A DNA stretch of 64,000 nucleotides from an uncultured Candidatus Saccharibacteria bacterium (GTDB lineage: Bacteria > Patescibacteriota > Minisyncoccia > Phycocordibacterales > SBAW01): positions 475,099 to 539,098 of the forward strand of contig CAZYUH010000001.1 of NCBI GenBank assembly GCA_964650645.1, given 5' to 3'. Below, one piece after another: positions 3,251-54,143 of this stretch; the first letter of the stretch is position 1, and every line of letters starts with the position of its first letter. A program made the position numbers and the translations under genes. The notes under the pieces are model-generated. The model was given only the letters and a program-made list of their open reading frames with translations. It ran no database searches and had not been told where the DNA came from.

Positions 3251-5032
3251 ATGAAAGTATCCCGCAATTGGCTCCAGAAATTCTTCGATGAACCGCTGCC
3301 CGACGCGCAGGCGCTGTCCGATGCGCTCACGTTCCACGTATTCGAGATAGACGGGATAGAAAAGCGCGGCGACGACGACATTCTCGACGTCAAGGTAACG
3401 GCCAACCGCGGGCACGACTGCCTGTGCCACCGCGGAATCGCCAAGGAGCTCTCGGCCATCCTCAGGCTGCCTCTCAAGGACGACCCGTTCGCGCTGCAGT
3501 TCGACATGTCGAAGAAGGCGGAAGCGGTGACCCTCAGCATAGAAGATCCGGCGCTGTGCCGCCGCTACATTGCCGGGCATTTCACCGGCGTGAAGGTGGG
3601 CCCGAGTCCCGCGTGGCTCTCGCAGGCGCTCGAGGCGATGGGCCAGCGAAGCGTCAACAACGTGGTGGACATGACCAATCTCGTGATGTTCAACACGGGC
3701 CAGCCGCTGCACGCGTTCGACGCCAAGCGCCTCGGCTCTCTAAATATCGGCGTGCGCGCCGCGCGCGAGGGTGAATCGCTTGAAGCTTTGGATAAAAAGA
3801 CATACGAGCTTAATTCTTCGCAGCTGGTCATTGCCGCGGCCGGCAGGCCGGTGGGCATCGCGGGCGTCAAGGGCGGCGAGGCCGACAGGATAGACGAGAG
3901 CACGACAGATGTCATCATCGAGGCGGCGACCTTTGACGGCGTCGCCGTGCGCCGGGCGGCCCAGGCGCTCAAGCTGCGCACCGACGCCTCGAGCAGGTTC
4001 GAGCAGGGACTAAGCCCGTACCTGGCCGAGGTCGGCATGCGCCAGATGGCCAAGCTGCTCGTGGATCTTGCCGGCGCTACGTGCGAGGGCTTCGTCGATA
4101 TGTATCCCGATCCGCAGAAGCAGGCGTACGTCGCGGTCACGGTCGAGAAGATAAACGCGGTGCTGGGCACGGCGCTTACCGGCGCGGATATTGCGGACGC
4201 GTTCGCGCGCCTGGGCTTTGCATACAAGGAAGAAGACGGCGTGTTCGAGGTCCAGCCGCCGCCCGAGCGCCTCGATATAACGATCGCCGAAGACCTTATA
4301 GAAGAAGTGGCGCGCATCGTCGGCTACGACAAGATTCCGGCAATCCCGCTGCCTGCGCCCGCCGCGGCGCCGGAAATAAGCAAGAACTTTTACGCGGCGG
4401 AAAAGGCCCGCGAGGAGTGGACGGCCAAGGGCTACAGCGAGGTGTTCACGTCCGTGTTCGCCGACCGCGGCGAGCGCGTCGTGCTCAACAAGGTGGACGG
4501 CGTGCGCCCGTACTTGCGCGACTCGCTCATCCCGGGGCTTACCGCCGCGCTCGCAAAAAACAAGCCCAACCGCGACCTCCTGGGCCTTAAGGAAATAAGG
4601 CTGTTTGAAATCGGCACGGTCTGGAAGGGTGGCAAGGAAGCCGTGATGCTCGGCACGGTGAGCGAGAAGGAGAAAGCGGCCGAGGTGCCGCTGGTCGGGG
4701 CCGAAACCCCCGAAGCGTACGACGACCTCCCGCTCTCGCAGGCGGCGCGCTACAGCGCCTTCTCGAAGTACCCCTGCATCGTGCGCGACATCGCCGTGTG
4801 GGTCCCGCCCGACACCAGCGCCGAGGCGTTCAAAGAGAACGTGCGGGCCGAGGCGGGCGAATTGCTTCAAAATATATTCCTGTTCGACACGTTTTCAAAA
4901 GAGGGGAGGGTGTCGCTCGCGCTGCGCCTGGTGTTCCAGTCGTTCGAGCGCACGCTCACCGAGGCAGAGGCGAATGCCGCGATGGAGAGGGTCGCGTCAA
5001 AGCTCAGGGCGCAGGGTTTCGAAATACGATAA
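3251..5032 (+). CDS. pheT: phenylalanine--tRNA ligase beta subunit (short, 593 aa)
   Basis: Starts MKVSRNWLQKFFDEPLP, 4 nt after the pheS stop; B3/4 and B5 region similarity; short C-terminus. Confidence 0.88.
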   Translation: MKVSRNWLQKFFDEPLPDAQALSDALTFHVFEIDGIEKRGDDDILDVKVTANRGHDCLCHRGIAKELSAILRLPLKDDPFALQFDMSKKAEAVTLSIEDPALCRRYIAGHFTGVKVGPSPAWLSQALEAMGQRSVNNVVDMTNLVMFNTGQPLHAFDAKRLGSLNIGVRAAREGESLEALDKKTYELNSSQLVIAAAGRPVGIAGVKGGEADRIDESTTDVIIEAATFDGVAVRRAAQALKLRTDASSRFEQGLSPYLAEVGMRQMAKLLVDLAGATCEGFVDMYPDPQKQAYVAVTVEKINAVLGTALTGADIADAFARLGFAYKEEDGVFEVQPPPERLDITIAEDLIEEVARIVGYDKIPAIPLPAPAAAPEISKNFYAAEKAREEWTAKGYSEVFTSVFADRGERVVLNKVDGVRPYLRDSLIPGLTAALAKNKPNRDLLGLKEIRLFEIGTVWKGGKEAVMLGTVSEKEKAAEVPLVGAETPEAYDDLPLSQAARYSAFSKYPCIVRDIAVWVPPDTSAEAFKENVRAEAGELLQNIFLFDTFSKEGRVSLALRLVFQSFERTLTEAEANAAMERVASKLRAQGFEIR

Positions 5033-6411: not shown

Positions 6412-8484
<2,073 letters not shown>

Positions 8485-8592
8485 CTCCGTAAAAGCAAGC
8501 GTTCCGGAGTGCGGGAATTTTTTGCTAAAAATTCCCTAACCTCGATTCCGTCGAATCTACGGACACTCCGGAACGCTTGCTTTTGCTCCGTA
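8485..8592. repeat. MITE-like palindromic element: 21-bp near-perfect terminal inverted repeats (AAAAGCAAGCGTTCCGGAGTG / CACTCCGGAACGCTTGCTTTT) flanked by direct CTCCGTA, with a nested 10-bp hairpin
   Basis: Seen directly: arms at 8491-8512 and 8564-8584, direct CTCCGTA at 8485-8491 and 8586-8592, inner GGGAATTTTT-tgct-AAAAATTCCC hairpin; begins right after the gyrB stop codon. Confidence 0.5.
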
Positions 8593-8594
8593 CC

Positions 8595-8627
8595 AAAAAA
8601 CTCCCCGGATATTCCGGGGAGTTTTTT
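8595..8627. terminator. bidirectional terminator (A6-CTCCCCGG-atat-CCGGGGAG-T6)
   Basis: Perfect hairpin flanked by an A-tract and a T-tract between gyrB (+) and the CARDB gene (-). Confidence 0.75.
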
Positions 8628-8654
8628 GCATAGCGTATGTTATTCCGCGAAGCC

Positions 8655-9620
8655 CTAGAACACCTGGTAGGTCGTAACCGCGGTGTTGTTGTAGTCGCTC
8701 GACTCCTGCACCTGGTTCATGGGGTCGACCTCGATGGTCGCCTGGGCCTGGCCGCCGTAGTAGCCGCCCTGCGCCGGCACGACGTCGTAGCCGAGCGTGT
8801 AGACTATCCTGTCGCCCGGGTAGAGCATCTGCTGGCCGCCCGAAGGATAGACGTAGAGGGGCTGGTAGGGAAGCACGGCGTTGAAGGTCCAGCCCGCGGG
8901 CGCCGCGTTGGTGCCGATGTTGGTGATGACGAACTGGAGGCTGATGCGCGAGCCCGCCTGCGCCTGCGTCGGAGCGGCGGTAATCTGCACCGCGAGGTCG
9001 GGCGCGCCGTAAAGATTCTGGGTGCGGCCCGACGGGACGTAAGTCGTCGCGGGCTTGGCGGGCGTCACCGGCTTTGCAGCGGGGGCGGCCGGCTTGGGCT
9101 CGGCGGGCGCGGCCGGGGCGGCTGCGGGCGTGGTGCTCGCGCTCACGGTCGTCTTCGCCGTCCCTTTTACCGCTATGGTGCCGTCGGAGAGGCGGGTCGC
9201 GGCGACGGTAAGCGTGGTCGACGCCTCCTTAACGCCCGGCGCGAGCACGGGGATTATCGGCATGGACGAGGTCGCGTTCACGTAATTGAACGGCGTGTCG
9301 CACTTCACGAGCTGGAAGGCGCCGGTAGGGACGGGCGCGGCGAACGCGAGGCCCGGGGAGCAGGCGTAGGAAACGGCGTACGAGTACTCGCCGTCCTTGC
9401 CCGCATGCTTCCATGAAAGAGGGAACGCCTTGTCGGATACCGACTGCGCGGGGGCGGACGCGGTCAGGGTCTCCTTGGTCTGGCCGATGGAGCCGAAGAA
9501 CGTGGGGAGGTAGAACGCGAGCTGGATAATGCCCCATGCGCCCAGCAATAAAATAGCTATCAGGCCGATGACGGCTATGACGCGCAGGAAGTTCTCCCGG
9601 AACGTAGGTGTGGGTGCCAT
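8655..9620 (-). CDS. membrane-anchored surface protein with Pro/Ala/Thr-rich linker and C-terminal CARDB-like domain
   Basis: Internal ATG 9620 (MAPTPTFRENFLRVIAVIGLIAILLLGAWG signal anchor); linker AAPAAPAEPKPAAPAAKPVTPAKP; C-terminal pattern DLAVQITAAP...ITNIGTNAAP...EVDPMNQVQESSDYNNTA resembles CARDB. Confidence 0.55.
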   Translation of the reverse strand: MAPTPTFRENFLRVIAVIGLIAILLLGAWGIIQLAFYLPTFFGSIGQTKETLTASAPAQSVSDKAFPLSWKHAGKDGEYSYAVSYACSPGLAFAAPVPTGAFQLVKCDTPFNYVNATSSMPIIPVLAPGVKEASTTLTVAATRLSDGTIAVKGTAKTTVSASTTPAAAPAAPAEPKPAAPAAKPVTPAKPATTYVPSGRTQNLYGAPDLAVQITAAPTQAQAGSRISLQFVITNIGTNAAPAGWTFNAVLPYQPLYVYPSGGQQMLYPGDRIVYTLGYDVVPAQGGYYGGQAQATIEVDPMNQVQESSDYNNTAVTTYQVF

Positions 9621-15983: not shown

Positions 15984-16012
15984 ATTATACTCCCGTTTAC
16001 GCAAAAAGTCAA
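15984..16012 (-). promoter_or_regulatory. consensus promoter on minus strand TTGACT-17-TATAAT
   Basis: + strand shows attata (15984-15989) and agtcaa (16007-16012) with a 17-nt spacer. Confidence 0.65.
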
Positions 16013-16078
16013 TATCCCTCTAACAAAGTTGTATCAAGGTTCAACCTTGATATGGGTGGCTTTGATAGGGGTGCGGAG

Positions 16079-19000
16079 TTACAGGGCCTTGAGCGCCTCG
16101 GTGACTATCGAGAACTCGCCGTTGCGGTTGGAGATGCGGCCCTTTATCGCGATGCAGGCGTCGGGGCGCAGGATGGGCTTGTACTCGGCGTAGCTCTTGG
16201 GGAAGACCACTGCTTCGACCGCGCCCGAGAAGTCGGCAAGCTTTATAAACGCCATCTGGTCGCCATTCTTGGTAAGCAGAACGCGCAGGCTCTCTATCAT
16301 GCCGGCGACCACGGTGGTGGTGCCGGGGTAGGAGCGCTCCTTTATCTGCGCGAGGTTGAGGGGGCGCCGGTCGAGCTTCTCCTTGAACTTGTCCAAAGGG
16401 TGGCCCGAAACGTAGAGGCCCAGCAGCTCCTTCTCCCACGCGAGGCGCTGGTCCTGGGTCGCGGGCGGGGCCGGCGGCACGCGTATCTCGCTCATGCCCT
16501 CGACGTCGGCGAAGAGGGAATCGTGCATCTTCTCGGCGCCGGCGTCGCGGTGGTACTGCAGGAGCTGCTCGATGTGCGCGAGCATCGCGCCGCGCTCGCC
16601 CATGGAGTCGAGCGCCCCGCACATGATGAGGCTCTCGAGCCCCTTCTTGTTGAGCCCGTTGTCGGTGACGCGGGTAAGGAAGTCCGACAGCGAGGCGAAG
16701 GGGCCGTTCGCGCGCCGCTCATTGATGATGGAGTCGGCCACGCCGCGGCCGAAGTTCTTTATGGAATAGAGGCCGAAGCGGATGGAATCGGGGGAGGCCG
16801 GGGAGGTTTCGGAAGCTGTAGGCGTGGCGGAAGCAACAGGTGCCCCGGCGACGCTATCCTCCTCTCTTGCGGATCGGAGCGTCGCCGAAACACCTGTTGC
16901 TTCCGCCGGGCTTGCAGTCTCTGCCTTGCCTGCCGGAGCGCTCCCCAGTATCACCGTGAAGTCGCCGAAGGACTCGTTGACGTCGGGCGCGAGCATGGGG
17001 ATGCCCATGCGCTTGCACTCGGCGACCATGACGGACACCTTCTCCACGTCGCCCGCTTCCGCCGTGAGCACCGCGGTCATGTACTCGACCGGGTAGTTGG
17101 CCTTCATGTAGGCGGTCTGGTAGGAGACGCGCCCGTAGCTCGCAGAGTGCGCCTTGTTGAAGCCGTACGCGGCGAAGGGCTCAATCCATGCCCACACCTG
17201 CTCTGCCTTCTTCTGCGGCCACCCGGAATGCTCGACGCATCCCTTGATGAACTTCTCGCGCTGGGCGGCCATCTCCTCGGGGATCTTCTTGCCGACCGCC
17301 TTGCGGAACTTGTCCACCTCGCCCCAGCTGTAGCCCGCCAGCTGGTTGGCCATGATGAGCAGGTCGTCCTGGTACACGAGGATGCCGTAGGTCTGCCTGA
17401 GGATGGGCTCCATCGCGCGGTCGAGGTAGCGGATGAGCGCGGGGTTGTGCTTGCGCTCGATGTACTGCGGGATGAACTGCATCGGGCCCGGGCGGTAGAG
17501 CGCCACCATCGCGTTGATGTCGTGGATGGTCGTGGGGCGCAGCTCCTTGAGGAAGCGCGTCATGCCCGAGCCGTTGAGCTGGAACGTGGCCTCGGTCTCG
17601 CCGCGCGTGAGCATGTCGAAGGTGCGCTTGTCGTCCAGAGGTATCGCCTCGATGTCTATCCTTTCGCCGCGCGTGCGCTCCACGAGGTTGACCGCGTTGG
17701 CGAGGATGGTGAGGTTGCGTATGCCGAGGAAGTCGAACTTGGTGAGCCCCGCGCCGTCCTCGCCCACGGAGTACATGTCGTACTGCGTGATTATCTTGCC
17801 GCCCTTGGGGTCGAGCTGGAGCGGCGCGAACTCCACCAGCGGCACGGGCGAAATGACGACGCCCGCGGCGTGCACGCCCACGTGGCGCGCGCACCCTTCT
17901 ATCTTCTGGCCGAGGCCTATTATCTCGCGCACCTGCGGGTCGGCCTTGTGCATCTTCGCGAGCTCGGGGTTCTCCTGCATGGCGCGCTCGAGCGTCATGG
18001 GGAAGCCCTGGCTGCCCATCGGGATTTCCTTGGCTATCGCGTCGCCCAGGCCGTAGGGCAGGCCCAGCGCGCGGGCAACGTCGCGCACGACGCCGCGCGC
18101 GAGCATGGTGCCGAAGGTGCCTATCTGCGCCACATGCTCCGTGCCGTACTTGGCGCGGGCGTAGTCTATGACCTCGTCGCGCCTGTCGTCGGCGAAGTCC
18201 ATGTCGATGTCGGGGGCCGAGGGGCGCTCGGGGTTGAGGAAGCGCTCGAAGGGGATCTTGTAGGAAAGCGGCTCGATCTTGGTTATCCGCAGGAGGTAGG
18301 TGACCATGGAGCCCGCGACCGAGCCGCGGATGTTGGTGTAGATGTCGTTCTCGCGCGCGAAGCGTATGAGGTCCTCCACCACCAGGAAGTACGCCGCGTA
18401 GCCCTTGAACTTGATGATGCCCAGCTCGTACTCGAGCCGCTCCATGACGTCGTCGCGGCCCTCGAGCCCGCGCGGCCTGAGGCCCGCCAGGCACAGCTCG
18501 CGCAGGCGGTCGTCGGCGGTCACGCCCTCGGGCAGGGCGAAATGGGGGAACACGAACTTGCCGAGCGTGAGCTCCAGATTGCACTTTTCCGCGATCTCGA
18601 GCGACGCCTTCAGCGCCTCGTCGCCGAGCTTCGCGCGCATCTCGCTTTCGTTCAGGAACGAGTAGTCTATCTCCTCGCCGTCCATGGTCATGCCGTCGTC
18701 CGCCGGGCCGCGGTTCTCTATCGCGCGCATCGTCTCCCATGCGCGGCGGTCCTCCGGGGAAAGGTAGTACGTCTCGTGCGTCGGCATGATGTAGAAGTCG
18801 CCGCCCCAGCGCTTCCTGTGCGCGGCGCTCAGGGACGACTCCGCCCGCTCGAGTGCGACGAGGCCGCCCGCGCGCGCGTCGAGCATCGCGGCGGTGATGG
18901 GGCGGCCCTGGGGGTCCTCGATGTGCGACTCGGTGACGAGCTTCATGAGGTTCTTGTAGCCCTCGAGGTCCTTGGCGTAGAGCAAAATCCGGTGGTGGTC

Positions 19001-19216
19001 CTCAAGCGTCGCGTCGAGCCCGATGATGGGCTTGATGCCTTTCTTATCGCACTCCATGTAGAACTCTATCGCGCCGTAGAGGTTATCCATGTCGGTTAGC
19101 GCGAGCGCCTCGACGCCCTCTTCCTTGGCCTTCTTCACGAGATCGCCGATTTTGGGCAGGGCGCGCAGCAGCGAGAAGTGCGAGTGGACATGCAGCGGTA
19201 CGAAGGAGGCGGCCAT
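16079..19216 (-). CDS. dnaE: DNA polymerase III alpha subunit, with a low-complexity Ala/Ser/Thr/Pro insert
   Basis: PHP domain start (FVPLHVHSHFSLL), polymerase core motifs, OB fold near the C-terminus; insert AGKAETASPAEATGVSATLRSAREEDSVAGAPVASATPTASETSPASPDS. The antisense ORF 16052..19099 is spurious. Confidence 0.95.
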   Translation of the reverse strand: MAASFVPLHVHSHFSLLRALPKIGDLVKKAKEEGVEALALTDMDNLYGAIEFYMECDKKGIKPIIGLDATLEDHHRILLYAKDLEGYKNLMKLVTESHIEDPQGRPITAAMLDARAGGLVALERAESSLSAAHRKRWGGDFYIMPTHETYYLSPEDRRAWETMRAIENRGPADDGMTMDGEEIDYSFLNESEMRAKLGDEALKASLEIAEKCNLELTLGKFVFPHFALPEGVTADDRLRELCLAGLRPRGLEGRDDVMERLEYELGIIKFKGYAAYFLVVEDLIRFARENDIYTNIRGSVAGSMVTYLLRITKIEPLSYKIPFERFLNPERPSAPDIDMDFADDRRDEVIDYARAKYGTEHVAQIGTFGTMLARGVVRDVARALGLPYGLGDAIAKEIPMGSQGFPMTLERAMQENPELAKMHKADPQVREIIGLGQKIEGCARHVGVHAAGVVISPVPLVEFAPLQLDPKGGKIITQYDMYSVGEDGAGLTKFDFLGIRNLTILANAVNLVERTRGERIDIEAIPLDDKRTFDMLTRGETEATFQLNGSGMTRFLKELRPTTIHDINAMVALYRPGPMQFIPQYIERKHNPALIRYLDRAMEPILRQTYGILVYQDDLLIMANQLAGYSWGEVDKFRKAVGKKIPEEMAAQREKFIKGCVEHSGWPQKKAEQVWAWIEPFAAYGFNKAHSASYGRVSYQTAYMKANYPVEYMTAVLTAEAGDVEKVSVMVAECKRMGIPMLAPDVNESFGDFTVILGSAPAGKAETASPAEATGVSATLRSAREEDSVAGAPVASATPTASETSPASPDSIRFGLYSIKNFGRGVADSIINERRANGPFASLSDFLTRVTDNGLNKKGLESLIMCGALDSMGERGAMLAHIEQLLQYHRDAGAEKMHDSLFADVEGMSEIRVPPAPPATQDQRLAWEKELLGLYVSGHPLDKFKEKLDRRPLNLAQIKERSYPGTTTVVAGMIESLRVLLTKNGDQMAFIKLADFSGAVEAVVFPKSYAEYKPILRPDACIAIKGRISNRNGEFSIVTEALKAL

Positions 19217-20641: not shown

Positions 20642-21562
20642 ATGGCCAACAGGCACCTCTCACGCTCAGTCGTTCTCCAGACACTCTTCGAGTGGGACTT
20701 CCGACATCTCTCGGCGGACGACTGCCTCGAATCCCTCGAGCGCATCGCGGAGGAGTCCGTGCCGCAGGGCGGCGACGCGCCGTTCATGGAGGACCTCCTG
20801 AGGGGCGTGCTCAGCCGCGCCGCGGACCTCGACATGGTCATAGGCAAGGCCGCGCCCGAGTGGCCCATTGACCGCATCGCGCCAGTTGACCGCAACGTCC
20901 TGCGCCTCGGGCTCTACGAGCTCCTGTTCGCCGACCGCGAGAAGGTTCCCGCAAAGGTCGCCATCAACGAGGCGATAGAGCTCGCCAAGAGCTTCGGCGG
21001 CGAGCATTCGGGCCGCTTCGTCAACGGGGTGCTCGGCGCCGTCTACAAGGAATTGGGCGAGCCGGGCAAGGACGAGGTGTCCAAGAAGAAGAAGGAGGTT
21101 CCGTGGGAGGAGATGCCGCAGGAGCGCCTGGTGGGCGCGGTCGTCTACGCCCGCTCGGGCAACGAGCTGTACCTCGCGCTGGTGCACGACATCTTCGGCC
21201 ACTGGACCCTCTCCAAGGGCAAGCTCACTCCCGATGAGACGCCGGAGGCCGGCGTGGTGCGCAAGATAAAGGAGGAGATAGGCTTGAATATCGAGCCCGA
21301 GCTGAGGCTGGGCGAGAACGAGTACGTCGCTTCCGACCCTGCGGCCGGCAAGAAGCGCAAGCACGTCATCTACTTCCTCGCGAAGTCGCCGTTCGCCGAG
21401 GTGGAGCTCGCTAAGAAGGGCGGCTTGGACGACGCGCGCTGGTTCAAGCTCCAGGACGCGCTCGAATTGAATTTTTACGAGGACATGCTTCCCATCGTCA
21501 TGAAGGCTGTCGAGCACCTCGGCGCCGATGCGAAAGGTAGAGCGAAGCTGAACGCTAATTAG
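20642..21562 (+). CDS. nusB: transcription antitermination factor NusB fused to a C-terminal NUDIX hydrolase domain (306 aa)
   Basis: N-terminal about 150 aa contains KVAINEAIELAKSFGGEHSGRFVNGVLGAV (NusB signature); C-terminal part has a Nudix box KGKLTPDETPEAGVVRKIKEEIGLNI and Nudix fold. Confidence 0.85.
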   Translation: MANRHLSRSVVLQTLFEWDFRHLSADDCLESLERIAEESVPQGGDAPFMEDLLRGVLSRAADLDMVIGKAAPEWPIDRIAPVDRNVLRLGLYELLFADREKVPAKVAINEAIELAKSFGGEHSGRFVNGVLGAVYKELGEPGKDEVSKKKKEVPWEEMPQERLVGAVVYARSGNELYLALVHDIFGHWTLSKGKLTPDETPEAGVVRKIKEEIGLNIEPELRLGENEYVASDPAAGKKRKHVIYFLAKSPFAEVELAKKGGLDDARWFKLQDALELNFYEDMLPIVMKAVEHLGADAKGRAKLNAN

Positions 21563-21570
21563 ACACATGT

Positions 21571-22263
21571 ATGGCAGCCGATTTCAATACGTTCCAGCAA
21601 AAGCTCGGGCTCGAGTTTAACGAGCCCGACCTCCTGCGCCAGGCCTTCACGCACCGCTCCTACCTCAACGAGCACCGCGGCGAGGTAAAGGGCCACAACG
21701 AGCGGCTGGAGTTCCTGGGCGACGCCGTTTTGGAGCTCATCGCCACGCACTTTTTGTACGAGAAGTTCCCGACGCAGACCGAGGGCGACCTCACGGCGTA
21801 CCGCGCCGCGCTCGTCAACGCGGTAACGTGCGCCGAAGTGGCGCAGGAGCTGGGCATGAACGACTGCCTCCTCTTGTCGCGCGGCGAGGCGAAAGACACC
21901 GGCCGCGCGCGCGGTATCCTCCTGGCGAACGCCTTCGAGGCGCTTGTCGGCGCTATTTACCTCGACCAGGGCTACGACGCCGCGCGCGAGTTCATCGCGG
22001 CGCACCTGTTCCCGAAAATAGACAACATCATCCAGAAGAAGCTCTGGCTCGACGCCAAGTCGTCCCTGCAGGAGAAAGTGCAGGACGTCGAGGGCGTGAC
22101 GCCGTCCTACAGCGTTTTGCGCGAGTGGGGGCCCGACCACGACAAGCACTTCGTCGTGGGCGTGCACGTGAAGGACAGGCTTTTGGCGCAGGGCGAGGGC
22201 AAGAGCAAGCAGGAGGCCGAGCAGGACGCCGCGCGCGCGGCGCTCGACGCGCGCGGGTGGTAG
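21571..22263 (+). CDS. rnc: ribonuclease III
   Basis: ERLEFLGDAVLEL catalytic signature and C-terminal dsRBD (KSKQEAEQDAARAAL). Confidence 0.92.
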   Translation: MAADFNTFQQKLGLEFNEPDLLRQAFTHRSYLNEHRGEVKGHNERLEFLGDAVLELIATHFLYEKFPTQTEGDLTAYRAALVNAVTCAEVAQELGMNDCLLLSRGEAKDTGRARGILLANAFEALVGAIYLDQGYDAAREFIAAHLFPKIDNIIQKKLWLDAKSSLQEKVQDVEGVTPSYSVLREWGPDHDKHFVVGVHVKDRLLAQGEGKSKQEAEQDAARAALDARGW

Positions 22264-27881: not shown

Positions 27882-28256
27882 ATGGCCACGGAGAAGGACC
27901 AGGAGTTTTTGGAATTCGTCGTCAAGGGGCTCGTCGAGCATCCCGAGGACATAAAAGTGAGCCGGGTCGTGGACGAGATGGGCGTTCTCCTGACGCTCGA
28001 CCTCAATGCCGAGGATATGGGCAAGGTCATAGGCCGCTCGGGCAATACCGCCAAGGCCATCCGCACCCTCCTGCGCGTCGTCGGGATGAAGCACAACGCG
28101 CGCGTCAATTTAAAGATTAACGAGCCGGTCGGCGGCCAGCGCAGCATGGACGCCGGCGGCTCAGCGGCCCAGGGCTGGGACGGCACCCACGAGGCGCCCG
28201 CCACTCCCGCCATGAAGTCCATAGACGAGGCCATGGGCGAGCTCGATAATTTCTAA
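27882..28256 (+). CDS. KH-domain RNA-binding protein (KhpA/YlqC-like)
   Basis: GxxG loop VIGRSGNTAKAIRTLL; conserved position after rpsP. Confidence 0.85.
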   Translation: MATEKDQEFLEFVVKGLVEHPEDIKVSRVVDEMGVLLTLDLNAEDMGKVIGRSGNTAKAIRTLLRVVGMKHNARVNLKINEPVGGQRSMDAGGSAAQGWDGTHEAPATPAMKSIDEAMGELDNF

Positions 28257-28378
28257 AGCTCCGCGAAATCGGCCGGCAAGCGATACCCGACTTTTCTGAT
28301 GAAAATCGGCTGATCCTCATTCCCGAGGGTCGTCAGACGATGCCTGCGGAGCCGCTTGCCGGCCGATTTCGCTTCGAC
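28257..28378 (+). repeat. structured intergenic element, copy A: CTCCGC / GAAATCGGCCGGCAAGCG stems enclosing a CCGAC-TTTTC-tgat-GAAAA-TCGG hairpin; begins at the stop codon
   Basis: Second copy at 53983..54092 (about 80% identical over about 110 nt) and a related core at 10424..10489; 18-bp inverted repeat GAAATCGGCCGGCAAGCG / CGCTTGCCGGCCGATTTC. Confidence 0.55.
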
Positions 28379-28380
28379 AC

Positions 28381-28416
28381 GCGAAAGCCGCCTGCAGGGC
28401 GGCTTTCGCTTTTGCG
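28381..28416 (+). terminator. intrinsic terminator (GAAAGCCGCC-tgcag-GGCGGCTTTC + GCTTTTG)
   Basis: 10-bp stem followed by a T-run. Confidence 0.65.
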
Positions 28417-28438
28417 CGTTCCGCGCTACCTTGGGTGC

Positions 28439-28873
28439 ATGGAGAAGGGGCTTATACGCGTATCGGTCATCGCCTTCTGCCATGACGGCAAGGGCAGGTA
28501 TCTCCTGGGCAAGCGCTCGGCGAATTGCCGCGACGAGCAGGGCAGATGGGATCCGGTCGCGGGCGGCGGCCTCAAGTTCGGGGAGACGGTAGAGGATGCC
28601 GCGCGCCGCGAAATAATGGAAGAAGGCTGCGCGGAAGCGAAAGAGCTGGAATTTCTCGGGTATCGAAACGTCTTCCGCGAGCAGGACGGCCAGCCGACGC
28701 ACTGGGTGGCCATGGACTTCAGGGCGCTTATAGACCCGGCGGAGGCGAAGATAGGCGAGCCGCACAAGTGCGATGAGCAGAAGTGGGTTACTATCGATGA
28801 GCTTGAAAGGATGCCCGACCTGCACTCGCAATTCCCAGTATTTATAGAAAGCTACCGAAGCAAACTTGTATGA
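28439..28873 (+). CDS. NUDIX hydrolase (144 aa)
   Basis: Nudix box GGGLKFGETVEDAARREIMEEGCAE; start at internal ATG 28439 (MEKGLIRVSVIAF); the 5' part of the track ORF lies over repeat A. Stop overlaps the trmD ATG (ATGA). Confidence 0.8.
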   Translation: MEKGLIRVSVIAFCHDGKGRYLLGKRSANCRDEQGRWDPVAGGGLKFGETVEDAARREIMEEGCAEAKELEFLGYRNVFREQDGQPTHWVAMDFRALIDPAEAKIGEPHKCDEQKWVTIDELERMPDLHSQFPVFIESYRSKLV

Positions 28874-29978: not shown

Positions 29979-30255
29979 GAATAGCGAAACCAACGGGCAG
30001 GCCGCGGGGGCCATGAGTGAGTATCGAGTGGGGGTTTCGATACAACTAAAGAGGTGTGGATACTTTCACCTAAAGCTTCATAAGGAAGCAGGGGAGCCCT
30101 TTGGGCGACCCGGATTTTTCGTGTTTTGGCTGTGTGCATAAGTCAGTTGACTCCTAAGCATTTGTGCGAATAGCCATTGCCAGGAAAGAGAGAGGTGGGT
30201 GCGTCGGGCGCAGGTGCGGGTCCCTTTATCAACGTCCCTTCATCTTACAATCATC

Positions 30256-37107
<6,852 letters not shown>

Positions 37108-53445: not shown

Positions 53446-53460
53446 GTGTACAATAGGGGC

Positions 53461-53982
53461 ATGCATACCATAAGGCCCAAGGAGGACCAGAACTTCTGGA
53501 ACTTCCTCTTTTCCGTATTCTTTATCATCGTGCTGGTCGCGGGGCTCTGGGTCATGCGCGACGTGCGCGGCGGGTTCCTGACCTCGGTGCCGGCGTTCGA
53601 CGCCTTCATGATGGCCTTCGCCGCGTTCCGCATCACGCGCCTCGTGGTGTACGACAAGATAACCCGCTGGTTCCGCGAGCTCTTCGCGAAGAGGGCCGTA
53701 GTGGAGCGCGACGGCGTGCCGTACGTGGAAGTGACGCCGTACTCCAAGGGCTTTGCCGCCACGGTCTACGACCTCCTCAGCTGCCCGTGGTGCATCGGCA
53801 TCTGGTCCTCGGCCATAGTCGTGTTCGCGTACTTCATATTCCCGTGGGCGTGGTCGGTCATCTTCTTCCTCGCCATCGCGGGCGCAGGCTCGCTCCTGCA
53901 GGTTATCGCGAACGGTGTCGGCTGGCGCGCCGAGATCCTCAAGATGGAGGCCCAGGAGCAGAAGCGCGACCTGCGCTTGTAA
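53461..53982 (+). CDS. DUF1360-family membrane protein (CPWCIGIW motif)
   Basis: ATG 53461 after AGGGGC; TM helices and the conserved LSCPWCIGIWSS segment. Confidence 0.6.
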   Translation: MHTIRPKEDQNFWNFLFSVFFIIVLVAGLWVMRDVRGGFLTSVPAFDAFMMAFAAFRITRLVVYDKITRWFRELFAKRAVVERDGVPYVEVTPYSKGFAATVYDLLSCPWCIGIWSSAIVVFAYFIFPWAWSVIFFLAIAGAGSLLQVIANGVGWRAEILKMEAQEQKRDLRL

Positions 53983-54092
53983 AGGCTCCGCAAATCCTGA
54001 CCGGCAAGCGGTACCCGGCTTTTCTGGGGAAAACCGGCTGATCCTCGGTCGCCGCCTGCGGAGCCGCTTGCCGGTCAGATTCGCTCCGCATC
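53983..54092 (+). repeat. structured intergenic element, copy B (homolog of 28257..28378), begins at the stop codon; flanked by direct GCTCCGC
   Basis: GCTCCGCaaatcctgaCCGGCAAGCGGTACCCGGCTTTTCTGGGGAAAACCGGCTGATCCTC...CTGCGGAGCCGCTTGCCGGtcagattcGCTCCGC; compensatory A:T -> G:C change in the inner hairpin relative to copy A. Confidence 0.55.
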
Positions 54093-54127
54093 AAAAAAAC
54101 TCCCCGAGGGGAGTTTTTTCGCGAAAT
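54093..54127. terminator. bidirectional terminator (A7-CTCCCC-gag-GGGGAG-T6), same type as the one after gyrB
   Basis: Perfect hairpin with flanking A-tract and T-tract. Confidence 0.75.
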
Positions 54128-54143
54128 TGATTCCGCGGAGCCT

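Follow-up and report, generated by a model that had tools for sequence, protein, structure and literature searches.

The window, i.e. the whole 64-kb stretch of DNA analysed here, contains a gyrB open reading frame whose stop codon is directly followed by a palindromic element (element C), an intrinsic terminator and the end of a converging gene. Pfam domains HATPase_c, DNA_gyraseB, Toprim and DNA_gyraseB_C were found in the identical protein, and its homologues carry the name gyrB of Candidatus Adlerbacteria / Paceibacterota. The features of this locus, with helices denoted P and junctions J, are the following:

6442-8484, plus strand: gyrB open reading frame of 680 aa, from the ORF list, with its TAA stop at 8482-8484
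8485-8491, plus strand: 5' terminal motif CTCCGTA of element C, directly 3' of the gyrB TAA
8489-8511, plus strand: 5' strand of P1 of C, 23 nt, perfect from 8491
8513-8536, plus strand: P2 hairpin of C, GGGAATTTTT-TGCT-AAAAATTCCC, from the RNA fold
8537-8543, plus strand: junction J2/3 of C, TAACCTC, from the alignment of the family
8544-8557, plus strand: P3 hairpin of C, GATTC-CGTC-GAATC, overlapping the TCCGT/ACGGA hairpin
8558-8563, plus strand: junction J3/1 of C, TACGGA (family consensus CTGCGGAGC), complementary to the CTCCG(T/C) end motifs
8564-8586, plus strand: 3' strand of P1 of C
8586-8592, plus strand: 3' terminal motif CTCCGTA of C
8594-8628, no strand assigned: bidirectional intrinsic terminator of the C cassette, common to the converging gyrB and CARDB-protein genes
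8629-8654, minus strand: right-end 'solo' motif, TAG followed by GGCTTCGCGGAATAACATACGCTATG, abutting the stop codon of the converging gene
8655-9620, minus strand: converging downstream gene of 321 aa with a CARDB domain

Element C is about 108 nt long and the whole cassette spans about 165-170 bp. Its core is a perfect 21-bp inverted repeat, in which AAAAGCAAGCGTTCCGGAGTG (8491-8511) faces its exact reverse complement (8564-8584); the stem grows outward to 23 bp via T8490·G8585 and G8489-C8586 and stands 4 nt past the gyrB stop. Strains L007, L008 and L010 carry the substitution G8585A, by which the U·G wobble becomes a U-A pair, so that pairing is kept. An earlier note on this DNA had described a 23-bp stem with one wobble, two hairpins, CTCCGTA on both sides and a terminator, all of which lie where it placed them; the interior, however, which it gave as 48 nt, measures 52 nt between the perfect arms. 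The note had also called the hairpin TCCGT-CGAATCT-ACGGA (8547-8563) T-loop-like. ARAGORN finds no tRNA-like gene; this hairpin and GATTC-CGTC-GAATC differ by 0.8 kcal/mol, and comparison favours the latter, which is conserved in the family as the former is not. The terminator hairpin, CAAAAAACTCCCCGGA-TAT-TCCGGGGAGTTTTTTG, is a perfect 16-bp inverted repeat with a GC-rich core, laid out as an A-run, CTCCCCGGA-TAT-TCCGGGGAG and a T-run. A simple consensus terminator scan did not report the 8594-8628 hairpin, probably because the paired A/T runs were counted as stem and no T tail was left.

The structure of element C is far beyond chance. RNA folding of positions 8470-8640 gave -87.9 kcal/mol compared with -39.2 ± 4.0 for shuffles (z = -12), and among perfect inverted repeats whose arms lie 20 nt or more apart the longest measures 21 nt, whereas 30 dinucleotide-shuffled versions of the window reached 11-14 nt. 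Six independent metagenome assemblies (L006-L011) repeat the sequence of C with no more than one SNP, and C is therefore not an assembly artefact. The population is present in the metagenome series JGI 3300049568-3300049576 and ENA ERZ27320625-38.

Two sister cassettes lie elsewhere in the window, giving a density of three copies in 64 kb:

28257-28433, plus strand: cassette A, after a KhpA-like KH-domain gene (27882-28256); perfect 20-bp P1 at 28263-28282 / 28353-28372, terminator at 28381-28409, right-end motif GTTCCGCGCTACC
53983-54143, plus strand: cassette B, after a DUF1360 gene (53446-53982); P1 at 53997-54011 / 64-78, terminator at ~54093-54119, solo at 54120-54143

The three cassettes align end to end through the element, the terminator and the right-end motif TTCCGCGNNGCC, and their terminators align with each other. 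In order, the cassette, which takes up the room from a stop codon to the next gene, consists of an end motif (A)(G)GCTCCG(C/T), a three-way junction of P1, P2 and P3, a second end motif, an intrinsic terminator and an inverted end motif, with TTCCGCG..GCC invariant at the right end of all three. With a covariance model (R1) trained on 8 copies, the scores were 102 bits for C, 105 for B and 93 for A, and 65-104 bits for the copies in relatives. On the antisense strand R1 reaches at most 17 bits, compared with ~100 bits in sense, and nothing else exceeds 29 bits in the 275 kb scanned. These scores and the alignment bear out the kinship of C with A and B that the earlier note had proposed. Judged from such comparisons, A, B, C and the copies in relatives are one small, previously undescribed palindromic intergenic repeat family.

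The exact C arms are single-copy in all data searched: they occur nowhere else in the window or the fetched relatives, and no two-armed site was found in a collection of 185,579 species genomes that does not hold the source genome. A 17-mer, GCAAGCGTTCCGGAGTG, gave 60 single matches in unrelated phyla of this collection, about the chance level by a rough estimate; none of the 60 is two-armed and none lies in Patescibacteria. Single-copy arms would suit a one-off structured 3' UTR or extended gyrB terminator that resembles A and B by chance, or an artefact of assembly, but this reading is scarcely credible given the R1 scores, the end-to-end alignment of the C cassette with A and B, the identical sequence in six independent assemblies and the gyrB sites of relatives, which are empty or hold other family members.

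Covariation in the family is strong in the helices, with 84% of the alignment cells of the three-way junction paired and double changes in 27 of the 35 pairs, a level reached by none of 500 shuffles; slid controls pair in 37-54% of cells. The P1 arms vary in sequence from copy to copy yet stay complementary. P2 follows the consensus N3-5 TTTTY / TGNN / RAAAA N3-5, in which four T:A pairs never change while the pairs beside them covary, and P3 shows double changes in four of its five pairs, with its CGTC loop recurring in L097b (GTTC-CGTC-GAAC) and in L076 and L094 (GCGC-CGTC-GCGC). The conserved junction bases are CCTC and CTGCGGAG; the CCTC of J2/3 is constant across subfamilies, A and B having CTGATCCTC.

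This pattern changes how the ends of the element are to be read. The earlier note had taken the arms for MITE-type terminal inverted repeats common to copies, whereas the C arm occurs only at gyrB, arms are copy-specific, and the sole terminal sequence common to copies is the short end motif GGCTCCGC. GCAAGCG/CGCTTGC, which it had counted as shared, takes a different stem position in C than in A and B. Nor is a target-site duplication the reading supported for CTCCGTA, which is the conserved terminus of every copy and solo and is absent from empty sites (L002, L099); the motifs homologous to the 3' CTCCGTA of C are GCTCCGC (B), GCTTCG (A) and GCTCC (L094 and L095). The label of a classical MITE thus holds in part: the elements are small (<~500 bp), non-coding, dispersed and polymorphic, but they lack shared terminal inverted repeats, and no parent IS was seen in the window or the fetched flanks.

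The family-wide 5' end motif (A)(G)GCTCCG(C/T) abuts a stop codon in every case. It follows the stops of the genes that precede A and B, those at two 'solo' sites and that of dnaE, which makes 5 of 48 gene ends against ~0.3 expected by a rough base-composition estimate. By its sequence, the 8629-8654 solo is the base of a family element without the interior. Three other candidate roles for parts of the element were discarded. CTCCG is not an uptake-sequence-like word, its 83 occurrences on one strand of the window and 70 on the other not exceeding the ~116 of a base-composition estimate. A switch or pseudoknot between the CTCCG flank and the internal CGGAG is complementary in 73-75% of cells, no better than shuffles, so that the two count as conserved motifs and not as an established helix. 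The apparent hammerhead ribozyme in A (CUGAUGA...GAAA) is the P2 loop plus stem, and B has CUGGGGA.

Occupancy varies among relatives at four sites: gyrB, DUF1360, khpA and nuclease/DsbA. At the gyrB site, C is retained in strains with 99% gyrB nucleotide identity. L005 (94%) has an A-type copy in the opposite orientation and no terminator, L002 (89%) has the terminator alone, a matching hairpin being the only intergenic feature, L094 (89%) carries a C-type copy that has another P1 and an additional insert, and in L095 and L097 (82-83%) the copies, of diverged C type, are decayed or doubled. The right-end solo position (8629-8654) is occupied by full-length elements in L005 and L097, and L096 has a recombination joint within the gyrB 3' end. 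The comparison of gyrB 3' regions suggested in the earlier note therefore yields the presence/absence polymorphism it had anticipated, and presence at the same site in all relatives, which it had named as evidence to the contrary, is clearly false. The DUF1360 site is empty in L099-L101, where the stop codons overlap and there is zero intergenic DNA, and L098 has a full element on the opposite side of the terminator. At the khpA site of L112, cassette A and a NUDIX gene are both missing, and only the distant relative L076 has a copy at the fourth site. The terminator is replaced altogether by the element in L005 and L076.

Within 6-11% nucleotide divergence, copies have been gained, lost, exchanged for other family members or cut down to 'solo' stumps. 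Decayed stems also occur, and contigs break at elements of the family. The R1 scan found no copies in 20 kb of L112, and in L095-L097 none lay beyond the gyrB site. Copies from different loci never come close to identity along their whole length, so that a recent transposition is not documented. A superfamily pattern matched 22 loci in metagenome contigs, among which only L076 and L080 are clear relatives; the remainder were rejected as members because they belong to other palindromic families, picked by the pattern itself. The same pattern gave no match in viral contigs.

Orientation can be assessed for C, A, B, L094, L095, L097a, L097b and L098; every one of these copies lies in sense, upstream of a terminator, with its 5' end 0-3 nt from a stop codon. 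Converging genes flank two of the three copies in the window and most of those in relatives, in what is a small sample. The conservation of junctions and loops, together with sense copies beside stop codons, would also fit a selected RNA function. The element would then be a cis-acting 3'-UTR module whose junctions (CCTC and CUGCGGAG) and loops (UGNN and CGUC) are bound by a protein or RNase, and which would set the 3'-end stability, processing or termination of the upstream mRNA, the copies being useful rather than mobile. We regard this as possible but doubtful. Loops and junctions that stay constant across subfamilies whose helices diverged with compensation point towards it, as do the pair-preserving strain variant G8585A and the replacement of the terminator in L005 and L076. 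The position and orientation of the copies point the same way; adjacency to the stop codon is, however, almost forced upstream of a terminator because intergenic gaps are tiny, and the genes upstream are functionally unrelated (gyrB, a KH-domain protein and DUF1360).

The helices themselves argue against selection at the RNA level. Among the P1 pairs 227 are Watson-Crick, 5 are G·T, 5 are A·C and 16 are other mismatches; fold energies are similar in sense and antisense, with antisense folding as well or better, and a strand test for RNA-level structure (G·U versus A·C; sense versus antisense energy) showed no asymmetry. P1 is equally good on both strands, which fits a DNA palindrome, and its 20-23 perfect Watson-Crick pairs are unusual in selected RNA helices. 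A useful module would also sit uneasily with the decay of copies to stumps and with close relatives that lack the element at the same sites. No Rfam family matched at the gathering threshold anywhere in the window; the best sub-threshold matches are generic hairpins scoring no more than 26 bits, where the thresholds run from 35 to 175 bits.

The symmetry of the palindrome raises another reading, namely a folded single-stranded DNA or cruciform recombination site, like an integron attC or a hairpin-targeted transposon end, whose three-way junction a putative recombinase or HUH enzyme would use to insert or exchange gene-end cassettes and, occasionally, genes. Sites of the attC type and Vibrio cholerae repeats are 60-140 bp palindromes after stops, in which structure is kept over sequence and the orientation to the ORF is fixed; here too structure is kept, sequence is not, and copies directly follow stop codons. 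Cassette B looks like a clean insertion between overlapping stops, with a 12-nt terminal inverted repeat (TAAAGGCTCCGC / GCGGAGCCTTTA) that takes in both stop codons and restores TAA on both sides. The TA...TA flanks of B and C coincide with stop codons (A has no such flank), but TA flanks are automatic where both ends abut TAA/TAG stops. The joint absence of cassette A and the adjacent NUDIX gene in L112, an indel that may be either a gain or a loss, and the recombination joint inside the gyrB 3' end of L096 would both suit such a site. In contrast to attC, however, the elements lack R''/R' core sites (RYYYAAC...GTTRRRY), extrahelical bases, an integrase and a cassette array; their ends are CTCCG(C/T), their stems are perfect, and the copies stand 20 kb apart behind core housekeeping genes. 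No integrase, HUH or other recombinase gene lies nearby, and no transposase or recombinase was seen in the window or the fetched flanks by Pfam scans and gene tables. Taken together, we find this explanation very unlikely.

A related idea, which we consider unlikely, is that the three-way junction is the target of a hairpin-specific enzyme in CPR bacteria and that the cassette is a mobile gene-end module. If true, the module would target the TA within stop codons for insertion, regenerating TAA at either side and bringing a bidirectional terminator, and would occasionally carry or capture a gene, e.g., the NUDIX gene beside cassette A. Genomes regarded as nearly devoid of mobile DNA would then harbour a system of the attC or REPIN type.

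The family is better placed among known extragenic repeats. A REP sequence is one imperfect hairpin, 20-40 nt in length and marked by a GTAG-type motif; REPs often form inverted doublets, and a RAYT gene lies elsewhere in the genome. They are 3'-UTR palindromes whose stems covary while a short motif is fixed; they can stabilise the upstream mRNA, and those abutting a stop codon can lower translation of the upstream gene. REP and REPIN elements are reportedly associated with RAYT transposases, and some REPs are said to lie within ~15 nt of stops. Our elements are likewise extragenic palindromes with stems covarying around fixed short motifs, but they are asymmetric, ~100 nt long and built of three helices, with the motifs CTCCG, CCTC and CGGAG in place of GTAG, and no RAYT (Y1/HUH) gene is found in the 64-kb window of the ~754-kb genome.

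SPRITE, BOX and RUP of Streptococcus pneumoniae are non-coding elements of <200 bp present in tens of copies, with stable stem-loops predicted if transcribed, and are enriched between converging genes and near gene 3' ends; their between-strain turnover is slow and they are confined to one species group (PMC3049150). SPRITE has a terminator-like hairpin and no clear terminal inverted repeat, target-site duplication or parent IS (PMC3049150). Like SPRITE, the unit described here carries an intrinsic terminator and sits at gene 3' ends, mostly, in our small sample, between converging genes. In contrast to all three, it has a three-way junction and a separate terminator rather than a single long hairpin, its closing helix is perfect and copy-specific in sequence, its copy number appears low (3 per 64 kb), and its host is a CPR bacterium of ~0.75 Mb and 63% GC. 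Correia elements (CREE / nemis) of Neisseria are MITE-like palindromes of ~100-150 bp that are co-transcribed with their neighbours and whose inverted repeats fold, as RNA, into long hairpins bound or cleaved by RNase III (PMC2649163; PMC2229807). They share a 26-bp terminal inverted repeat, duplicate a TA target, contain IHF sites and promoter halves, and alter neighbouring gene context by their presence or absence among strains (PMC2649163; PMC2229807). Here, by comparison, arms differ from one copy to the next, a search for promoter-like sites found none, and a TA duplication is inseparable from the stop codons.

On balance, C is probably a copy of a lineage-specific, non-autonomous REP/MITE/SPRITE-like repeat of Candidatus Adlerbacteria (Paceibacterota, CPR), and not specific to gyrB. 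The repeat occupies the gap between stop codon and terminator, and its copies would spread either through transposition in trans or through recombination, among copies and among strains. They may persist because this gap is among the few insertion-tolerant places in a 750-kb genome. Lying in sense between stop codon and terminator, a copy should be transcribed into the 3' UTR. Once transcribed, the perfect duplex, 21 bp or more in length, would offer RNase III a substrate and would block 3' exonucleases, and a duplex 4 nt past the stop codon could hinder the terminating ribosome. An RNase III and an RNase R/II-type enzyme are both encoded within the window.

CPR/Patescibacteria genomes are small and streamlined, and are usually described as poor in repeats and mobile DNA. 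Our literature search on MITE or REP elements in CPR/Patescibacteria found no relevant paper. The element is of an ordinary kind (MITE, REP, SPRITE-like) in an unusual host, which extends a known phenomenon to a new lineage and leaves the concepts unchanged. It means that a genome of ~0.75 Mb still carries palindromic intergenic elements that turn over, placed for co-transcription with essential genes such as gyrB and the rpsP-khpA-trmD operon. The family explains the recurrent contig breaks and the strain-level heterogeneity at those gene ends, and is a marker for strain typing and for tracking recombination in Adlerbacteria populations. It also offers a compact test case, in organisms whose RNA-decay machinery is minimal, for how termination, processing by RNase III and the decay of mRNA respond to long perfect hairpins beside stop codons.

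The gene bordering the element under study, gyrB, is the open reading frame 6442-8484 on the forward strand, and by its homologues the window is assigned to Candidatus Adlerbacteria / Paceibacterota, which belong to the CPR (Patescibacteria). An identical GyrB protein was found on a 754-kb contig. The palindromic element at its 3' end, C, has two sisters in the window, A and B, with the same layout.

Features at the gyrB 3' end and of the sister elements
8482-8484, forward strand: gyrB stop codon TAA, followed directly by CTCCGTA
8491-8511, forward strand: 5' arm of the closing helix (P1) of C, AAAAGCAAGCGTTCCGGAGTG, 21 nt
Between the arms: interior of C, 52 nt
8564-8584: 3' arm of P1, the exact reverse complement of AAAAGCAAGCGTTCCGGAGTG
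8586-8592: second CTCCGTA, 3' of the C arm after an intervening G
8594-8628: terminator hairpin CAAAAAACTCCCCGGA-TAT-TCCGGGGAGTTTTTTG, 3' of C
8655-8657: stop codon of the CARDB-domain gene that converges on gyrB, beyond the C terminator
28257-28381: element A, 3' of a KhpA-like KH-domain gene
53983-54092: element B, 3' of a DUF1360 gene

The palindromic structure proposed at the gyrB stop codon was confirmed by folding, shuffling and comparison of assemblies: the stability of the fold at C lies 12 standard deviations beyond that of shuffles, the perfect inverted repeat spans 21 nt compared with 11-14 nt in shuffled windows, and the sequence of C was found in six independent assemblies. The stem extends to 23 bp once a U·G and a G-C pair are added, and in three strains (L007, L008, L010) the wobble G is replaced by A, giving 23 Watson-Crick pairs. 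The arrangement of arms and hairpin given in the earlier note stands, with an interior of 52 nt instead of the 48 nt stated there. Within this interior, TCCGT-CGAATCT-ACGGA and GATTC-CGTC-GAATC are competing hairpins, 0.8 kcal/mol apart. Only the second is shared among copies, with covariation (GTTC-CGTC-GAAC in L097b, GCGC-CGTC-GCGC in L076 and L094), so the T-loop-like hairpin first described was discarded; ARAGORN detected no tRNA-like gene.

Elements A and B start 2-3 nt past a TAA stop and are each followed by a terminator. A search pattern written to suit A, B and C together matched one copy in the gyrB region of a relative (L005) and, among metagenome contigs, two loci that are clearly related (L076 and L080). 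Alignment of eight copies gave a consensus three-way junction, with which RNAalifold agrees. In this consensus, P1 is a long helix with a GCGAAA/TTTCGC-like junction-distal end and a variable middle, junction J1/2 reads (G)TAC, helix P2 reads N3-5 TTTTY / TGNN / RAAAA N3-5, J2/3 carries CCTC at its end, P3 combines a short stem and a CGTC loop, and J3/1 is CTGCGGAGC (CTACGGA in C). Pairing was observed in 84% of cells, with both-sided changes in 27 of 35 pairs; none of 500 shuffles reached these values of pairing and covariation, and a control with the partner columns slid paired at only 37-54%. A covariance model built from the eight copies (R1) gave scores of 102 bits for C, 105 for B and 93 for A, and of 65-104 bits for copies in relatives. 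No further R1 match above 29 bits was found in 275 kb, and antisense-strand scores were at most 17 bits. Together with an end-to-end alignment of the cassettes (element, terminator and right-end motif), these scores uphold the suggestion that C is a sister of A and B. The GCAAGCG/CGCTTGC match offered in its favour was dropped, since this motif forms outer P1 in C and adjoins the junction in A and B.

Other palindromic repeats were encountered during these searches. Cloverleaf-like elements from an organism with 35% GC (L078, 11281-11395, and L088, 96-195, both minus strand) have an outer stem of 27-33 perfectly paired bp, the outer part of which differs from one copy to the other, and three perfect inner hairpins; they score 26-29 bits with R1 and may represent a distant sister family. 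A further repeat family (GCAAGCGGTCGCTTTTTTGAAAAAAAGCTCCGCAAAAAAC...) in L074, L075, L079, L082, L084 and L091 (Ga0116226-8 contigs; organism with ~62% GC) was rejected as related, having been found solely by satisfying the search pattern.

The three full intergenic cassettes, A, B and C, can be aligned from end to end with terminator and right-end motif included, and the repeated unit is larger than the element first noticed. The right-end motif, (A/G)TTCCGCGNNGCC, reads on the opposite strand as a stop codon followed by GGCT(C/T)CGCGGAAT, and is the 5' end motif plus P1 base of a family element without its interior (a 'solo'). The ends of cassette B form a perfect 12-nt inverted repeat, TAAAGGCTCCGC...GCGGAGCCTTTA, with both stop codons inside. 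Of the window's 48 stop codons, 5 are followed by a CTCCGTA-type motif (CTCCGC in A and B), which empty sites lack; the CTCCGTA 'direct flanks' of the first reading are thus conserved element termini and not a target duplication. Pairing of the CTCCG ends with internal CGGAG was also considered and rejected: the two are complementary, yet no more than conserved motifs predict.

The same end motif, TAA followed directly by CTCCGCACCCC, stands 3' of dnaE (15985-16078, minus strand), where an unrelated hairpin, TATCAAGGTT-GA-ACCTTGATA, follows with no family element behind it; the motif may be a remnant. Inside dnaE (16079-19216, minus strand), an in-frame inverted repeat at 16816-16917, with 40-nt arms that are 83% complementary, coincides with an Ala/Pro/Thr/Ser-rich insertion of ~46 aa (aa 760-809) absent in relatives L096 and L112 (dnaE of 983-984 aa). 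It gave no R1 match and looks like a palindromic insertion in a coding region, akin to the Rickettsia palindromic element.

We fetched gyrB 3' regions from relatives at graded distance.

State of the gyrB 3' end in relatives, with gyrB nucleotide identity
L006-L011, 99%: C identical
L005, 94%: neither C nor terminator; an A-type element in opposite orientation fills the entire gap
L002, 89%: 47-nt gap, terminator alone
L094, 89%: C-type element with quite different P1 and ~60 extra nt; a terminator and a solo follow
L096, 87%: no family member; gyrB 3' end duplicated
L095, 83%: C-type copy with decayed P1
L097, 82%: two elements flanking the terminator, each sense to its neighbouring gene

The presence/absence variation that the earlier note envisaged was found, with occupied (L006-L011), empty (L002) and swapped (L005) states; in L005 the A-type element has its 5' end against the stop codon of the gene converging on gyrB. 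When the window is compared with L094, the flanking non-coding DNA (terminator and solo) is ~90% identical (by eye) and P1 is largely different, a pattern that suggests exchange for a different copy and not divergence on the spot. In L096 (~3597-3703), the final 25 nt of gyrB, stop codon included, are present twice, 57 nt apart, and the second of these is similar to the gyrB terminus of a different lineage (L002 type); this duplication looks like a trace left by a recombination joint, positioned precisely at the 3' boundary of gyrB.

Other sites vary similarly. At the DUF1360/Gmad2 site (cassette B), an 82% relative has no intergenic DNA on three contigs, the stops overlapping as CTAA, and an 83% relative carries a solo and a terminator, with a full element placed on the opposite side. 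At khpA, A is kept in ten near-identical strains; in an Adlerbacteria MAG (L112; 93% KhpA), trmD follows khpA after 34 nt, and element, terminator and NUDIX gene are all absent. At the PD-(D/E)XK nuclease / DsbA site, distant L076 has a family member between the homologues and the window only a terminator. In this lineage, the NUDIX gene (28439-28873), cassette A (28257-28433) and the terminator interrupt the conserved rpsP-khpA-trmD operon, an indel of ~615 bp in the khpA-trmD interval between the window and L112. Several metagenome contigs end within or beside elements (L001 33 nt past the gyrB stop, L098 inside a minus-side element, L004 at the gyrB stop), consistent with repeats or strain heterogeneity disrupting assembly.

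The element is asymmetric, with P2 preceding P3, and its 5' end points toward the stop codon in all eight stop-to-terminator copies (C, A, B, L094, L095, L097a, L097b and L098). These copies count as no more than four or five independent events, however, and in intergenic gaps as tiny as these any item upstream of a terminator necessarily adjoins a stop codon. A selected RNA function for the family, the main alternative, would account for this uniform orientation as well as for the conserved junctions and loops. The helices carry no RNA-strand signature: in P1, 227 pairs are Watson-Crick, 5 are G·T, 5 are A·C and 16 are mismatches of other kinds, folding of the antisense strand equals or slightly surpasses that of the sense strand, and wobble-free perfect stems of 20-23 bp fit a copied or recombined DNA palindrome better than a helix kept solely by selection on RNA. 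No Rfam family matched. An attC-like recombination site is a more remote alternative; neither the window nor the fetched flanks contain transposase or recombinase genes.

Genes for RNase III and for an exonuclease of the RNase R/II type are present in the genome. Just upstream of the RNase III gene (21571-22263) lies a gene for a 306-aa protein with NusB and NUDIX domains (20642-21562, forward strand). A single 2302-aa open reading frame with RpoB and RpoC domains (30199-37107, forward strand) suggests a fusion of rpoB with rpoC, and relatives show this arrangement too.

On the 64 kb of source genome covered here, the family is most economically read as a small palindromic repeat, interspersed and lineage-specific, of the same kind as REP, MITE and SPRITE elements. 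It sits in the stop-to-terminator gap, is gained, lost, swapped and eroded over 6-11% sequence divergence, and is stably inherited within a strain cluster. Its movement could depend on an enzyme whose gene lies at another place in the genome, or it could spread by recombination, both between copies and between strains. Repeats of this general kind are well known from other bacteria (PMC3049150, PMC2229807, PMC10969869). For CPR bacteria we found no Rfam family and, in literature searches, no paper describing such elements. REP elements near stop codons offer a precedent for effects at the RNA level. Correia elements provide another (PMC2649163). Its position implies that C would be co-transcribed with gyrB, whose transcript would end in a three-way junction with a closing 23-bp duplex beginning 4 nt past the stop codon. 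By analogy with both precedents, this duplex may plausibly act as an RNase III substrate, an exonuclease barrier and an obstacle for the terminating ribosome.
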